Source: a virus
Lineage: Duplodnaviria > Heunggongvirae > Uroviricota > Caudoviricetes
IMG/VR virus record: IMGVR_UViG_3300013104_000003
Location: 26,956 to 90,955 of that record
DNA: 64,000 nt
Reading direction: 5' to 3' (one strand)
Position 1 is the first letter of the stretch, and each line of letters opens with the position of its first letter. A program made the translations under genes and the position numbers. Below, in pieces: positions 25,777 to 56,045 of this stretch. The notes under the pieces are model-generated. The model was not told the DNA's origin and ran no database searches. It saw only the letters and a list, made by a program, of their open reading frames with translations.

Positions 25777-27951
25777 GTGGCAGATTTGAAATTTATTGAA
25801 GGACAATGGATTTTTGACATTGAAACGTATCCAAACTGCTACACTTTTTGTGCTGTATATTCAAATGGTAAGGGGATTCGTACCTTTGAGATTAGTGATC
25901 GTAAAAACGAAGTAGAAGAGATGCTTGATTTTCTTCGCAAAGTAGCTACGTCCAAACACAAGTTGGTAGGTTTTAACAATGTCGGCTTTGACTATCCCGT
26001 CATTCATTACATTTTGGAGAAGTCAAAGAAAGCAAAAGTAGCCGGTAAACCTTTGGTGATTAATGCTAAAGAGATTTATGATGTAGCTATGAAACTTATT
26101 CGTAGTCAGAATGATGAGAAGTTTGGTAATGCAATTCGGGATAAAGAAGTAAAGATCCCTCAAGTTGATCTGTTTAAGATTCATCACTTCGATAACAAGG
26201 CTCGTGCCACGTCTTTGAAGATGCTTGAATTCAATATGCAGTCAGACAACATTGAGGATCTTCCTTATCCTGTTGGTACGATGTTAAAGGATCATGAGAT
26301 TGATGAACTAATTAAGTACAACAAACACGATGTCCTTCAAACATTGAAGTTCTATAAAGAATCTATTGAGGCTATTCGTTTTCGTGAGAAACTAACTGAG
26401 AAGTACGGATTTGATTGTACAAACTATAATGACACGAAGATTGGTAAACAGTATTTTATCAATCGTCTTGAAAAAGCTATGCCGGGATCTTGTTATACAA
26501 AGAATCCTCATGGTGGACGTACAATTAATCAAACGAAACGTCCTATCATTTATTTGAAAGATGCAATTCTTCCTTACATCAAGTACGAACGTGAGGAATT
26601 TAAAGCTCTTTTGAAGTGGTTTAAGACGCGGAGCATTATAGAAACAAAAGGTGTGTTCATTGATGTACTTGAAAAAGATTTGGGAGAGCTTGCTAAATAC
26701 TCTCAACTGACAACCAAGAAACGAAAGCTGAAGACCAAACCAACCGATGAGGAATTAGTAGCACTCAAGGAAGAAAACCCATTGTCTTGGGTTGAAGAAA
26801 TTGAGTTGAAAGGTAAAGAAACTAAAGCTAATGGCGGTGGTCAGAAGAAAGCCTATTGGTTGAACTGGAAAGTTGCTGAAACATTGAACGTAGTTGTTGA
26901 TGGGTTTCGCCTTGACTTCGGTACAGGCGGTATCCATGGTAGCGTAGAATCAACAATTGTTCGCTCTGATGAGGATGAAGTAATCGACGACCGAGATGTC
27001 GCCAGCTACTATCCAAATTTAGCGATCTCTAATAACGTCTATCCAAAACATCTTGGACAGAACTTTTGCCGTATCTATAAAGATGTTTATGTAGAGCGTA
27101 AATCACACCCTAAAGGTAGCCCAGAAAACGCTGTAATGAAGCTTGCTTTGAACGGGGTGTATGGTGATTCAAATAGTGAGTTTAGTCCGTTTTATGACCC
27201 ACTTTATACCATGACAATCACCATTTCGGGCCAGCTTTCACTGTGTATGTTAGTAGAGGATTTGCTGAAGGTTGAAGGTTTGAAAATGGTACAGGCTAAC
27301 ACCGATGGCATCACTTTCAAACACAAACGTTCTGATGATCCTTTGGTTGATAAAATTGTCAGTGATTGGGAAGTGACAACAAAGCTGGAGATGGAGCGTA
27401 ACGATTATTCTATGATGGCAATTCGTGACGTTAACAATTACATCGCTATCTATGAAAAAGGTGGAAGTGTAAAACGTAAAGGAGCATACGAATATGCTGA
27501 TTTGGATTGGAATAAAAACTTCTCATCGTTGGTGATTCCTAAAGCTGCTGAGCATGAGATTCTTGGACGTGGAACTGTTGAGGAATTTATTGAGAACCAT
27601 AAAGACAAATGGGACTTTATGTTGCGTACGAAAGTACCTCGTAGCTCTCGCTTGATCATGGTGATGCCTGACGGGACGGAAGTACCGCAGCAGAATATCT
27701 GCCGGTATTACCCTGCAAAAGAAGGTGGTAAGCTTGTAAAGATTATGCCAGCACTAGAAGGTAAGGAAGCTGATGGTGATCGTCGTTTGAGTATTGATAA
27801 AGAGTGGAATGTCAATACTTGTAATGATATTAAAGATTTTAAATGGGGCGTGGACTATGAATATTATATTTCTGAAGCACGTAAATTGGTTGATCCGTTA
27901 ATGGGTAAAGGTGAAGTAATTGAAAGAAGTGTGGAAACCGATTATTCTTGA
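25777..27951 (+). CDS. Family B DNA polymerase with 3'-5' exonuclease domain
   Basis: 724 aa, GTG start with RBS. Exo I is FDIETYPN, Exo II GFNNVGFDYPVI and Exo III YNKHD. Pol motif A is DVASYYPNLAI, motif B KLALNGVYGDSN and motif C QANTDGITF. Confidence 0.8.
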   Translation: MADLKFIEGQWIFDIETYPNCYTFCAVYSNGKGIRTFEISDRKNEVEEMLDFLRKVATSKHKLVGFNNVGFDYPVIHYILEKSKKAKVAGKPLVINAKEIYDVAMKLIRSQNDEKFGNAIRDKEVKIPQVDLFKIHHFDNKARATSLKMLEFNMQSDNIEDLPYPVGTMLKDHEIDELIKYNKHDVLQTLKFYKESIEAIRFREKLTEKYGFDCTNYNDTKIGKQYFINRLEKAMPGSCYTKNPHGGRTINQTKRPIIYLKDAILPYIKYEREEFKALLKWFKTRSIIETKGVFIDVLEKDLGELAKYSQLTTKKRKLKTKPTDEELVALKEENPLSWVEEIELKGKETKANGGGQKKAYWLNWKVAETLNVVVDGFRLDFGTGGIHGSVESTIVRSDEDEVIDDRDVASYYPNLAISNNVYPKHLGQNFCRIYKDVYVERKSHPKGSPENAVMKLALNGVYGDSNSEFSPFYDPLYTMTITISGQLSLCMLVEDLLKVEGLKMVQANTDGITFKHKRSDDPLVDKIVSDWEVTTKLEMERNDYSMMAIRDVNNYIAIYEKGGSVKRKGAYEYADLDWNKNFSSLVIPKAAEHEILGRGTVEEFIENHKDKWDFMLRTKVPRSSRLIMVMPDGTEVPQQNICRYYPAKEGGKLVKIMPALEGKEADGDRRLSIDKEWNVNTCNDIKDFKWGVDYEYYISEARKLVDPLMGKGEVIERSVETDYS

Positions 27952-52477: not shown

Positions 52478-53554
52478 TTATTGTTTTACTGGGAATTGAA
52501 CATTCACCTGATCAAAAGATTGTACAAACATATTTGCAACAGCTTCGCCAATTGCTTGAGCTTGTGCATTAGCATCCATACCTTGTAGAGTTGAACCGTC
52601 AACGTTTACAGTAATGTCAATCTGGTTACTGTTGTTGGTCACAATACCCATCGCTTTATCTTCAGCAGCAGCCTTGGCCATTTCAGCTTGTTGATCATCA
52701 TAACCAGCAGCATCGTGGTAATACATTGATGTGGGATCGTCGTATACAGCTCTTCCACGCTCACGAGCTTTAGCTAAGTTAAAGCCAGTGTTGTTAATAA
52801 TATCGCCAACAATCGCCGCAGGGGAGGCATATTCAAGACCAAACAGATTTGCTTTTTCAGTAGAGCTATTATTTGTAGCTTCTGTAGGCAGAGAACCACT
52901 TTTCCACCTTTGGAACTCACCGATAGCATTAAGTATTGCAGCAAGTTCTTTAGTCGTGGCCTGAAGAGTTGGTAGAAATTCACTGAATAGATTAGTAGGA
53001 TTCAGTGCAGACATTTGCTCCCAGAGAGTCTTAATGTCTTGCCAATCTTTTACCAACTGAGATGTTTTACCTATGCCCAACCAATCAGCTACAAGACTAT
53101 CCTTTCCCTCAAGTGCTCTGATAAAAGACTGAGGAAACAGAAGAAGATCATCTGCCCACTTAGTGGCATCATTGAACCCTTCAGCCAGCGTACGGATAAG
53201 GCTACCACTCTCACTCAAGCCAGCATTCAAAGTTCTGAAGATTCTTGCAAAGCCTTCCTCTACGCCGGAATTAGATGCTAGAACAGCCATGTCATTTACA
53301 GAATTCTGATAGCGAGCTTGTTCAGCCTGAGAGGCTTGGCTTGCAGAGGCCAAGGCACCCCCAGCATTAGCTCTTTGAGAAGCAGCAGCACCGGCATAAG
53401 TTAAAATATCACTGGTTACTTTACCTTTCTTCATATCAGCTAAAAGCTGTTGAATAGCATCTGCACCAGTTTTGTTTCCGCCGATTTTAGCTTGATAAGC
53501 CTGCGCAAAGAGTGCTGTGCCGCCCGGCAGCGCCTCTGCGATTTGACCTGTACT
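52478..53554 (-). CDS. Tape measure protein, C-terminal part (exon 2 candidate)
   Basis: The 318-aa ORF runs from the ATG at 53434. The same frame stays open a further 40 codons upstream to a stop at 53555-53557, encoding STGQIAEALPGGTALFAQAYQAKIGGNKTGADAIQQLLAD. The protein is A/Q-rich and TMP-like. Confidence 0.5.
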   Translation of the reverse strand, partial: STGQIAEALPGGTALFAQAYQAKIGGNKTGADAIQQLLADMKKGKVTSDILTYAGAAASQRANAGGALASASQASQAEQARYQNSVNDMAVLASNSGVEEGFARIFRTLNAGLSESGSLIRTLAEGFNDATKWADDLLLFPQSFIRALEGKDSLVADWLGIGKTSQLVKDWQDIKTLWEQMSALNPTNLFSEFLPTLQATTKELAAILNAIGEFQRWKSGSLPTEATNNSSTEKANLFGLEYASPAAIVGDIINNTGFNLAKARERGRAVYDDPTSMYYHDAAGYDDQQAEMAKAAAEDKAMGIVTNNSNQIDITVNVDGSTLQGMDANAQAQAIGEAVANMFVQSFDQVNVQFPVKQ

Positions 53555-54631
53555 TTATATTCAAGCAGAGGCGTTACTCTCTGCTCCGTTCTCTTATGAA
53601 CTGCTATAACTCTCGCTATAGAATAGACCATATCTTACACTTCAACTTTACTTGTTCAGTGTCTTCCCATTTCCACTCACTTGAGTGTACGTCTTTCGAC
53701 TGGCCGTTGAACTTTAAACCTTAGAAGTATTCATCAGATATGTGTACATATCTGATTTTATTGCGTATTCTTTTGATTTCAATTATTACCAAATCTTTGT
53801 TGGTAGACTCTTCTGAAATTGCTTTATCAGAATAACCTTTAATAATTTTATCACAGACCCACCTTACTGTAGATTCAGAGAAGTCTTTTCTGTAGTTATG
53901 ATCCATAGGGTACAAAGACCTAATGTGAAAATAAGTACTTCCATCTTTAATTTTTCTTATAATATCAACAGAGCATTCATACTTATCAGCAAGGTCTTTA
54001 GGTCTTGCACCGTTTTGAAGTTCTTGACAAATAATATGAACTTGAGTATTTGTTAACTGAGAATTGTAAAGATCCTCACCTTTTTGTTTCAGGCCAGTTT
54101 CAACAGCATGAAGTTGATTCTGAGACTTTGTTACCCATTCAAGATTGGAAACTGAGTAGTTAAGCTTATTACCATCAATATGATTAACTTCTATTTTCAA
54201 CTCGGGGTCATCATTAGGAATCCAGCACTCAGCCACCATTACGTGTACATTAGCCCATGAAGCTTTACAATCGTGACTTACTCTCACACAAGGGTAGTTC
54301 TTTACATCTTCACCGCGAAGCATTCCCACTTTCATCTCTTTTTCCCACTCCCAGCGGAAGACCCTTCCTTTAATAGAGCAACCGTAGTTAGGCCAAAGAG
54401 ATGATTTTCTTACCAAAACACCTTGTATATATTTCTCTTGCATTTGTTGCTCCTTACTGATATTCGGGATTTTCTAAGGCTTCTTAGCTGCTGATTGTCC
54501 CTATGGTTGATATTGTCACTATCCCTCATTCCGTTACAAATGAGTTCATCCAATATATCACTATATGGAGAAGTAATCAACCCCTGACGGGAGTTTCCAG
54601 CAATTAGAGAAGTAAATTTTTCTACATATTT
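53555..54631 (-). other. Intervening sequence in the tape measure gene carrying an HNH homing endonuclease. Candidate group I intron.
   Basis: The HEG has its own RBS. Non-coding flanks of about 190 nt and about 165-285 nt separate it from the two TMP halves. Confidence 0.45.
53721..54443 (-). CDS. HNH homing endonuclease (HNH_3 plus C-terminal HTH)
   Basis: 240 aa with NHIDGNKLNYSVSNLEWVTKSQNQLHA. RBS AAGGAG precedes the start. Confidence 0.75.
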   Translation of the reverse strand: MQEKYIQGVLVRKSSLWPNYGCSIKGRVFRWEWEKEMKVGMLRGEDVKNYPCVRVSHDCKASWANVHVMVAECWIPNDDPELKIEVNHIDGNKLNYSVSNLEWVTKSQNQLHAVETGLKQKGEDLYNSQLTNTQVHIICQELQNGARPKDLADKYECSVDIIRKIKDGSTYFHIRSLYPMDHNYRKDFSESTVRWVCDKIIKGYSDKAISEESTNKDLVIIEIKRIRNKIRYVHISDEYF

Positions 54632-55459
54632 CTATGCAGCGAGCCTAACATTAAGCTCTTCGCTCATCAACTTGCCTTTACCAGCTACTTGGGAGAGCGC
54701 CCTAAATAACCTATTTTGAGTCGTCTTATCCAACTTGTTGACTCGTGCCAATTCAGCGAAACCAGAGAATACTTTCTGACTTTGTTTAAGTCCTATACCC
54801 GAACCTGTAAGGCCAGAAATTAATTTGTTGTAATCTCCTGATGCATCAAGATAGTTAAAACCGATACGCTGTCCTTCACTTCGAAGGTACTGAAACGATG
54901 CGGCCCCCTGTTCCGGTGTACCACCAGCCTGTTGAACAACAGCAGATGTTTGGAGTTGGGAACTAACCACTTGTTGGTTTCTTTGGTTCAAAGCACTCAG
55001 TCCATATCCACCCAAACCTAATGCCAGGGCCGGACCATACAGACCTGAAACACCCCTGCCAATTAGACCACCACCCACAGCACCAGCAACATGAGAAGTT
55101 CTCCCACCAACACCATTTACATGAACGTTAGGTCGAATCGTTGCACTTTGCCCAGCAACACGGGATGCTTGTATGGTAGCTGCTGTCATAACGCGATTCA
55201 GATGCATTTGATCTACAGCAAACCTACTAATCTCGAATACTAGCCTAGAGGAAGCCATGTCTAAGGCGTTACCTAAGGTCGTATTCAACCTTCGTTGATC
55301 TACGTCAAATCTTCCAAGAGATAAAGTTATTGGTGTGTTTGCAAACTTACCTAACTTCTTTAATCTATTCTCAACATGGTCGAGTGATTTGTCAACTTTT
55401 TTAATTGATGACTTATCAACTTCTATACCCATGGAGGCGAAGTACTTACTAATCTGCAA
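54632..55459 (-). CDS. Tape measure protein, N-terminal part (exon 1 candidate)
   Basis: 275 aa. Gly-rich hydrophobic segment. Ends in the TMP-type motif LSQVAGKGKLMSEELNVRLAA. Confidence 0.55.
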   Translation of the reverse strand: MQISKYFASMGIEVDKSSIKKVDKSLDHVENRLKKLGKFANTPITLSLGRFDVDQRRLNTTLGNALDMASSRLVFEISRFAVDQMHLNRVMTAATIQASRVAGQSATIRPNVHVNGVGGRTSHVAGAVGGGLIGRGVSGLYGPALALGLGGYGLSALNQRNQQVVSSQLQTSAVVQQAGGTPEQGAASFQYLRSEGQRIGFNYLDASGDYNKLISGLTGSGIGLKQSQKVFSGFAELARVNKLDKTTQNRLFRALSQVAGKGKLMSEELNVRLAA

Positions 55460-55474
55460 TGTTCACTACTCCGT

Positions 55475-56045
55475 CATTTCGGTTTATTTTTAGCAGCTTT
55501 AGCTTTTTCAATAGCTTGTTGGGTAAGGGAGTCATGGACATCAAGAAGCTCAATTAACTTAAGCATTTGTCTTGTAGAATATTTCCAATCCATTTCAGAT
55601 GCCAGCTCTAAACCACCCTTCTCATGCATAGCTATACGATAGATACTCCAATGTTGGGAGAATGTTTTATCTATCTCTTGCTCTAATCCTGTCTTCCCCG
55701 ATCCAGATTGACTTTTATTGTCAATTACTCTTCTGTATCGGGTGCCTGAAAAAGTTCTTCGAAGTTAAAGTTCAACACTTCTTTATAGAGCTTATTCAAG
55801 TGAGCGTATTTACGTGCAAACTGAATGTCGAAAGATTTCTCAGTGATTTGCATATTATCTTTAGAGACATAGTTGCAGATGATTTGCTTCATTTGACTGA
55901 GGTCAGCTTTACCTTCATCAATTGCCGCTTGATGTTTTTCAATGAACATCAAACCTTTTGTGGCAGGCATAGCGGTTACCAAATAATCTTGATCATCAAC
56001 TGTAACAGTTGTTTGCTCCAATACTTCAAACTTTGGTGTAGCCAT
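55475..56045 (-). CDS. Tail assembly chaperone with a predicted -1 frameshift extension (G/GT-like)
   Basis: The 106-aa ORF is 55725-56045. Its -1 frame is open from about 55760 to a TGA at 55475-55477, about 87 codons past the chaperone stop, ending 16 nt before the TMP start. A U5 run (cttttc) in the overlap is a possible slip site. Confidence 0.5.

Follow-up and report, generated by a model that had tools for sequence, protein, structure and literature searches.

The stretch of DNA analysed here, called the window throughout, comprises 64,000 nucleotides (positions 26,956 to 90,955) of the IMG/VR virus record IMGVR_UViG_3300013104_000003, assigned to the Caudoviricetes. This report concerns the locus at window positions 52,478 to 55,459, where a tape measure protein (TMP) gene is interrupted by a predicted group I intron carrying an HNH endonuclease gene. 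Three open reading frames (ORFs) were confirmed on the minus strand, at 54632-55459 (275 aa), 53721-54443 (240 aa) and 52478-53434 (318 aa). The first has a TTG start and a C-terminal end that reads ...QVAGKGKLMSEELNVRLAA before its stop codon, and the frame of the last is open for 40 more codons upstream, up to a TAA, reading ...STGQIAEALPGGTALFAQAYQAKIGG. Between them the HNH gene has its own AAGGAG ribosome binding site and non-coding flanks of 188 nt and 166-286 nt. In its ORF coordinates, upstream open frame, ribosome binding site and flanks the locus agreed with a first-pass annotation made from the sequence alone, which had proposed that a TMP gene is split here by a 1.1 kb insertion. 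ORF 54632-55459 matched the Pfam family TMP_3 at profile positions 13-115 of 192 with 38.5 bits, below the threshold of 41, and ORF 52478-53434 was without any Pfam match. The features of the locus were assigned as follows.

54654..55459, minus strand: TMP exon 1, with a TTG start at 55459; ends AGC GAA GAG CU, that is ...GKGKLMSEE and the first two bases of Leu
53553..54653, minus strand: predicted group I intron of 1,101 nt; starts UAAUGUUAGGCUC... and ends ...GAAUAUAAAG with a terminal G; boundaries from orthologs
54450..54455, minus strand: Shine-Dalgarno sequence AAGGAG, 6 nt upstream of the HNH ATG
53721..54443, minus strand: gene of a 240-aa HNH homing endonuclease, situated in the loop that closes P6a, with its UAA stop inside the P6a 3' strand; assigned from Pfam and PHROG matches
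52478..53552, minus strand: TMP exon 2; begins U ACA GGU CAA, that is (L)TGQ...; stop codon at 52480-52478

A search of a large protein collection returned 592 homologs of the TMP, and the counts for length and junction are from the best 120 of these. All 120 are full-length proteins of 604-778 aa that are collinear with the two flanking ORFs over the junction, with 61-86% identity and 77-100% coverage (100% in 112 of the 120), and many of them are encoded on contigs of 85-93 kb. The junction region reads G.G.L..EEL-[TSV][GS]QI[AS]EALP in 102 of these proteins and exactly GKGKLMSEELTGQIAEALP in 67. The N-terminus of exon 1, MQISKYFASMGIEV, matches the one in the uninterrupted homolog P0002, and the ATG at 53434, the start given in the ORF list, is internal to exon 2. 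When the protein joined in silico was used as a tblastn query, the uninterrupted TMPs of PAK_P3-like Pseudomonas phages aligned in a single piece over the junction (query residues 79-479). The L001 allele, which lacks the intron, runs from GAGGAACT straight into TACTGGTCAAATT, with no bases between, in the target stretch ...ATGTCTGAGGAACTTACTGGTCAAATTGCAGAAGCC....

The in-silico spliced TMP reads ...GKGKLMSEELTGQIAEALPGG... and is identical at the junction to the same 67 homologs; its length of 626 aa comes close to that anticipated for the joined parts (about 630 aa). Its TMP_3 match extends over profile positions 13-175 and, at 44.9 bits, lies above the threshold. Judged from these alignments, the two ORFs are exons of a single TMP gene, the predicted ligation of which restores the conserved motif. 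Alignment to the uninterrupted TMPs of related phages, which had been suggested as a check on the first-pass annotation, bore out its proposal of a split gene.

The splice sites were placed at GAGCU/U and AAAG/UACAGG (the slash marks the site of splicing here and below) because 102 of the best homologs read an EEL-TGQIAEALP-type junction. For the 5' splice site, after U54654, the proteins and the U·G wobble of the P1 hairpin independently gave the same position. The intron is 54653-53553 and not the ORF gap of 53435-54631, because NVRLAA with its stop codon and the S codon before TGQ are intron sequence. The junction is not between LNVRLAA and STGQIAEAL as had been expected; the first exon ends ...EEL and the protein resumes with TGQIAEAL. 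A 5' splice site after AAUGU, which would yield ...EELNV/QIAE or ...EELNV/TGQIAE, and a 3' site placed after ACAGG, which would yield ...EEL/QIAE, were ruled out by the orthologs and the P1 U·G pair. Pfam TMP_3 was unable to separate the four candidate junctions (47.1, 43.5, 44.9 and 42.2 bits).

For the analysis of the fold, the ORF-bearing loop was swapped for GAAA and the resulting 360-nt sequence was aligned with 12 introns scoring 50-110 bits for Rfam Intron_gpI (RF00028). RNAalifold on this 13-sequence alignment recovered P2, P3, P4, P5, P6, P6a, P7.2, P8 and P9; P7, which forms a pseudoknot with P3, and P7.1 were put in by hand afterwards. The ORF-deleted window intron forms 55 of 55 consensus pairs (P2, P3, P4, P5, P6, P6a, P7, P7.1, P7.2, P8 and P9). 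Over the alignment 97.3% of the paired cells are filled by pairs, compared with 32-44% when the 3' partners were slid by 1-3 columns, and compensatory change was found in 36 pairs; none of 500 shuffles reached the observed values. All five P7 pairs are kept in all 13 sequences. P1 was predicted by RNAalifold on two and on six introns from the TMP site, and the six TMP-site introns gave 109 predicted pairs, 47 of them with compensatory change, including pairs in P5a-c, P9.1 and P9.2. The predicted elements, all on the minus strand, are given below.

54641..54658: P1 hairpin, exon GAGCU and intron UA with the internal guide sequence (IGS) UAGGCUC; U54654·G54645 wobble; loop AUGU
54622..54639: P2 hairpin CUGCAUA-GAAA-UAUGUAG, from RNAalifold; holds an in-frame UAG at 54634-54632
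54472..54612: ribozyme 5' half, P3 5' strand to P6a 5' strand, from consensus pairs, covariation and a sub-threshold Rfam match
54612-54607: P3 5' strand
54602-54597 with 54494-54489: P4
54592-54589 with 54501-54498: P5
54582-54576 with 54511-54505: P5a of the P5a-c extension
54488-54486 (5' strand) and 53713-53711 (3' strand): P6
54479-54472 (5' strand, CCUUAGAA) and 53726-53719 (3' strand, UUCUAAGG): P6a
53564..53726: ribozyme 3' half, P6a 3' strand to P9.2, from a sub-threshold Rfam match and Staphylococcus phage similarity
53707-53702: P7 5' strand A[C]GGCC, with a bulged C; pairs with GGUCU
53700-53691: P7.1, GUC-GAAA-GAC
53687-53674: P7.2, CACUC-AAGU-GAGUG
53668-53663: P3 3' strand, GGGAAG
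53662-53637: P8
53636-53625: J8/7 and P7 3' strand, AAGAUAUGGUCU
53621-53604, 53601-53588 and 53585-53564: P9, P9.1 and P9.2
53553: terminal G (ωG) at the 3' splice site, position from the protein junction; intron ends ...AUAAAG

The insertion is, on this model, a group I intron with a complete and covarying predicted fold. Its predicted architecture is IA2-like, with P7.1/P7.2 and an extended P5; helices P7.1 and P7.2 in this place, between P7 and the P3 3' strand, characterise subgroup IA2 (T4 td, Twort). The UAG in P2 stops read-through translation from exon 1 (...L NVRLAA and stop), and a 3' tail of the form GAAnAUnnnG/UA is common to the introns of loci L019, L027, L030, L034 and L029. 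Searches of the window with the conserved P7.2 and P7/J8-7 motifs for other intron copies gave this copy only. A group II intron, an intein and a programmed frameshift were rejected on the grounds that there was no reverse transcriptase and no Rfam group II match, and that the locus has in-frame stops, a separately initiated ORF and a 1.1 kb insertion. In the RNAalifold structure of the window and L019 introns, UACUU just 5' of P3 (54611-54615) pairs with AAG/UA over the 3' splice site (53548-53555) through five invariant pairs, which may form as an alternative or only transiently, or may have arisen by chance.

The 240-aa ORF matched Pfam HNH_3 (PF13392) at residues 84-110 with 35.5 bits (cut-off 24.8), and PHROG 59, 'HNH endonuclease', with E=1e-38. 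A profile of four orthologs matched I-HmuI (PDB 1U3E) with E=2.7e-5 over residues 20-118 of 240, a region that includes the N-terminal domain and the HNH motif, and the motif VNHxxGxK...NLEW.TKSQN, invariant in the four orthologs, aligns with VDHKDGNKDNNLSTNLRWVTQKIN of I-HmuI. Comparison with the L019 ortholog gave pN 0.11 and pS 0.76, and the ORF is accordingly under purifying selection. The Shine-Dalgarno sequence is kept as UAAGGA(G/C) in L019, L027 and L030, and relatives without the ORF have a short P6a hairpin where it sits. By these comparisons the product is an intact and conserved I-HmuI-like HNH endonuclease. The P6a 5' strand (54452-54479 region, minus strand) is complementary both to the P6a 3' strand and to the UAAGG of the Shine-Dalgarno sequence. 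Masking of the Shine-Dalgarno sequence by this strand was considered and set aside, since local folding lent it no support: the minimum-energy structure prefers another hairpin, with a z-score of -0.78.

A scan with the HNH protein located a 90.6-kb IMG/VR contig (L019/L036) with an 84%-identical HNH ORF in an intron of 1,098 nt, the insertion point of which in the TMP gene is exactly that of the window intron. In-silico splicing of L019 was in frame and gave ...GKDQLMAEELTGQIAEALPGG.... Between the window and L019, identity is 62% and 58% for the DNA of the two exons and 58.5% for the TMP protein; in the intron it is 87% for the 5' ribozyme part, 76% for the HNH ORF DNA and 74% for the 3' ribozyme part. 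The differences between the two RNAs are largely compensatory, with 18 such pairs (in P4, P5c, P7.1, P7.2, P8, P9 and P9.2); the L019 counterparts of P7.1 and P7.2, for example, are GAUC-GAAA-GAUC and GGAUC-AAGU-GAUCC. A 24-nt P1-P2 probe retrieved 6 metagenome loci and 5 IMG/VR loci, and in each the intron follows the ...EEL codons of the TMP motif. These sites lie in at least three TMP families, with the junctions ...GKGKLMSEEL/TGQIAEALPGG, ...LGKGT[VI]xMEEL/RRQMAESMPG and ...LSKGSVMAEEL/KSQLSESLPS. Two TMP-site introns are ORF-less, one of 362 nt in L034 (IMGVR_UViG_3300011561_000001; 85.3 bits for Rfam RF00028) and one of 365 nt in L029 (OBIY01001114.1; 68.4 bits). The L034 intron looks like an L027-type intron minus the P6a endonuclease gene, a form that is expected because homing endonuclease genes go through a cycle of gain and loss. 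The intron was not present in any of the 120 best TMP homologs, yet it occurs at the same site in diverged phages, a distribution that suggests mobility.

Uninterrupted orthologs, a covarying fold, homology to introns that pass the Rfam threshold and an I-HmuI-like ORF in a peripheral loop together support what the first-pass annotation had proposed, a TMP gene split by a group I intron with an HNH gene. It is very probable that a mobile intron of this kind interrupts the gene right after the ...GKGKLMSEE-L codons, in the most conserved TMP motif. The late transcript would fold into the ribozyme, with P1 (GAGCU·GGCUC, with the U·G wobble) presenting the 5' splice site. Guanosine bound in P7 would attack after U54654, and the freed exon would then attack after the terminal G53553. 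Ligation would join ...GAAGAGCU to UACAGGUCAA... and give an mRNA for the 626-aa TMP; the expected ligated-exon RNA is ...GAAGAGCU-UACAGGUCAAAUC..., and the expected junction tryptic peptide of the spliced TMP is LMSEELTGQIAEALPGGTALFAQAYQAK. Ribosomes running into the unspliced intron would stop at the UAG in P2, and translation of the endonuclease gene would start from the ribosome binding site that it carries. If the enzyme acts as characterised intron endonucleases of phages do, it would nick or cut intron-less TMP alleles on co-infection, with repair copying the intron in (homing).

Several observations count against this interpretation. With Rfam at the gathering threshold (50 bits) there was no match on the intact window sequence, and at a permissive E-value the whole window gave no intron match. 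A search of 1.5 kb with permissive filters returned only two partial Intron_gpI matches on the minus strand, at 54440-54602 (P4-P6 positions, 13 bits) and at 53604-53810 (P7 to P9 including the AAGAUAUGGUCUA element, 17.9 bits, E=0.1). These two matches flank the HNH ORF, and the low score of the intact intron was attributed to the 745-nt ORF-bearing P6a insertion, which splits the model match. For this reason the minus-strand search with Rfam intron models that had been suggested earlier would look negative if run naively: it failed at the gathering threshold and succeeded to the extent of the two sub-threshold pieces. P10 is weak, about 2 bp (UA/UA), the 3' exon starting with UA in all copies seen. 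P1 is invariant among the TMP-site introns and so is without covariation support, partly since these introns were retrieved with the P1-P2 probe. That the introns of the window and L019 are more alike than their exons could be due in part to structural constraint and not to recent transfer. Catalysis, timing, cleavage specificity and homing are argued by analogy with known group I introns and endonucleases.

A real intron that no longer splices was weighed as a rival explanation. With such a decaying remnant the TMP would be a non-covalent assembly of two polypeptides, one of 275 aa and one of about 318-358 aa, and the own stop codon of the 5' ORF, the internal ATG at 53434 in the 3' ORF and the failure of the intact sequence to reach the Rfam threshold would all fit. 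Decay is nevertheless improbable when all 55 consensus core pairs are intact, together with ωG, the U·G pair and the J8/7 element AAGAUAUGGUCU, and when the differences from the L019 copy are overwhelmingly compensatory, a sign that the fold is still under selection. In addition, the gene is broken midway through the motif that is best conserved among TMPs, and within the Pfam TMP_3 domain, and no naturally split TMP was found among the 120 best homologs, every one of which is full-length.

Still further from the evidence is a free-standing HNH gene inserted between two distinct tail genes, with no intron at all. Homing endonuclease genes of that kind are common between phage genes and the HNH gene here has its own ribosome binding site, but each of the 120 best homologs is one unbroken protein to which both flanking ORFs are collinear, and the flanks of the HNH gene fold into a complete group I core homologous to threshold-passing introns. 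Mis-called fusions would have to be supposed in the homologs, and their 85-93 kb contigs, each with one continuous ORF, argue otherwise; we regard this explanation as extremely improbable. A metagenome assembly chimera or sequencing artefact also had to be considered, the window being assembled metagenomic data and one matching contig being 125 kb long against 85-93 kb for relatives. The same 1,101-nt insertion is, however, present in independent assemblies of different samples: a Logan contig from SRR6956985 is identical in sequence to the window locus, and the 125-kb contig, from ENA ERZ27252462, differs by 1 base in 6.7 kb. Because the sequence recurs in these two further independent assemblies, the arrangement is not an accident of assembly. 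With this site also occupied by diverged orthologous introns in other contigs and in the genome of a cultured Aeromonas phage, an artefact is scarcely credible.

The kind of element described here, a mobile group I intron with an endonuclease gene, is already known. The T4 td intron, which is IA2-type, has the ORF of its endonuclease I-TevI looped out of P6a and homes on co-infection. The intron in RB3 nrdB encodes an HNH enzyme, I-TevIII, and I-TevI is a GIY-YIG enzyme. The host genes of these two introns serve nucleotide metabolism, whereas here the host gene serves virion structure. In the DNA polymerase introns of SPO1 and SP82, as here, an HNH enzyme (I-HmuI/I-HmuII) is found in a group I intron, and I-HmuI is the closest solved structure; the cases differ in host gene and intron sequence, and probably also in where the ORF lies. 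I-HmuI is a nicking enzyme that cuts intron-containing DNA too.

Among cultured phages, the closest sequence relatives are the introns of Staphylococcus Twortvirinae (Twort, K, CF5 and vB_SscM-1). Megablast of the whole locus against cultured phages gave only Staphylococcus phage matches of 50-91 nt, and so there is no close relative among isolates. In these matches window positions 53625-53715 are 85-90% identical over 50-91 nt to unannotated Twortvirinae DNA, and in the two phages examined, CF5 and vB_SscM-1, the matching DNA scored 96.9 and 89.8 bits for Intron_gpI. The P7.1/P7.2 architecture and all 55 consensus pairs are common to the Twortvirinae introns and the window intron. The CF5 and vB_SscM-1 copies differ in that they follow tail sheath/tube genes and are not in TMP, are mostly ORF-less, and have a different P1/IGS and P5 extension. 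A 28-nt P7.1-P7.2 stretch within this similarity is unchanged in 13 IMG/VR loci, nearly all of them inside Intron_gpI matches of 52-110 bits. Two IMG/VR records, 3300031555_002387 (247 kb; L008, L010 and L013) and 3300029705_000091 (86 kb; L011, L015 and L016), each contain at least four copies of closely related ORF-less group I introns with this invariant stretch.

TMP-gene group I introns, too, are already on record. Tourasse and Kolstø (2008) reported group I introns of subclasses IA2 and IA1 at three TMP sites in Bacillus cereus-group prophages, TMP-IVS1/2 being IA2 and TMP-IVS3a having an H-N-H endonuclease gene; their comparison table includes the TMP intron of Lactobacillus delbrueckii phage JCL1032, and an early stop codon, located in P1/P2 and no more than 27 nt into the intron, was given as a pattern for phage and prophage group I introns (PMC2504315). 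The window intron resembles the B. cereus-group introns in its TMP host gene, its group I class (IA2 for IVS1/2), in-frame insertion, early P1/P2 stop, placing of the endonuclease gene in a peripheral loop, derivatives without the ORF, and patchy occurrence among related phages. The prophages are siphovirus-type elements of Gram-positive hosts, whereas the phage here is contractile-tailed, of about 90 kb and related to Pseudomonas phages, and its TMP has about 620 aa against more than 1,200 aa; the likeness is one of description and not of compared intron sequences. Group I introns in late structural genes that are spliced during late expression and are found in only some members have also been reported for cluster J mycobacteriophages (PMC3706429). 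Those introns are in capsid and minor tail genes, not TMP, in phages of other hosts, and the likeness again lies in the description.

The novelty lies in the host lineage, made up of myoviruses that are uncultured, have about 90 kb and are related to Pseudomonas phages, and in the finding that a single intron lineage recurs at one motif across several TMP families. A possible wider reading, which we hold to be slightly less likely than not, is that the window intron represents a widespread lineage, so far undescribed, in which IA2-type introns carry endonucleases like I-HmuI. The lineage would be specialised on the near-universal TMP motif ...G-K-G-x-[LV]-x-x-E-E-L/, and its conserved target, GA(A/G)GAGCU/UA, would let it move between otherwise unrelated TMP families in phages that infect Gram-negative bacteria. 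This reading is supported by the three TMP families described above and a fourth in the Aeromonas phage PhAER-4. A more speculative addition to it is that the efficiency of splicing may determine how much full-length TMP is made relative to an N-terminal fragment of 275 aa.

In the genome of PhAER-4, a cultured phage (L037, PQ495741.1, 2492-3866), an HNH-bearing intron splits the TMP after ...VMAEEL, and an ORF-less sequence at L037:3587-3866, which scores 90.5 bits for RF00028, precedes the 3' TMP ORF; all TMP and intron pieces are annotated in the GenBank record as 'hypothetical protein'. The lineage sometimes occurs as twin introns with a micro-exon of about 30 nt between them. In L030 (Ga0209300_1000353) and L035 (IMGVR_UViG_3300009194_000050) a second group-I-like sequence lies about 31 nt past the first 3' splice site, and this sequence (...UAACAUAAG...CUAAUUGCGGGAAAGCCC...) starts directly after the micro-exon encoding RRQMAESMPG. 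In L032 (IMGVR_UViG_3300048912_000059), from position 825, the same P1-P2 sequence comes after a window-type TMP exon (VAGKGKLMSEEL); the intron there has a short P6a hairpin and a diverged 3' part, and there is no long ORF within the 936 nt examined. The site may in this case hold another variant of the intron, or one with its endonuclease gene in another position.

For annotation, the consequence of such introns is that gene callers split the essential TMP gene into two 'hypothetical' or TMP-fragment ORFs and an HNH gene, as seen in the gene calls of the ENA contig (L002) and in PhAER-4. Predictions of tail length from TMP length are wrong unless the exons are joined (626 aa). A standard Rfam scan misses ORF-bearing group I introns, and ORF-less orthologs and covariation recovered this one. 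The TMP intron leaves the current understanding of group I introns unchanged; it adds a well-supported case in which a gene for virion structure, in a myovirus lineage resembling Pseudomonas phages, holds a mobile intron, and the shared insertion point in several TMP families bears on how homing elements choose conserved targets.

The TMP gene lies in a contractile-tail module with genes for a sheath, a tail assembly chaperone and a Dit-like protein, and the neighbouring sheath is 51.7% identical to that of Pseudomonas phage vB_PsaM_M1. By its genes the phage appears to be a contractile-tailed myovirus of roughly 90 kb, known only from metagenomes, with nearest cultured relatives that infect Pseudomonas. 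Contig k141_2452358 of ENA ERZ27252462 (L002) is 124,983 bp long compared with 85-93 kb for related phage contigs, and its extra size could mean that the genome is larger, that the assembly is concatemeric or that other DNA has been joined on. On the minus strand the chaperone gene at 55725-56045 (Pfam Phage_TAC_15) and a 51-aa ORF at 55474-55629 lie immediately upstream of the TMP gene; the position just upstream of a TMP gene is the usual site of a programmed-frameshift chaperone pair.

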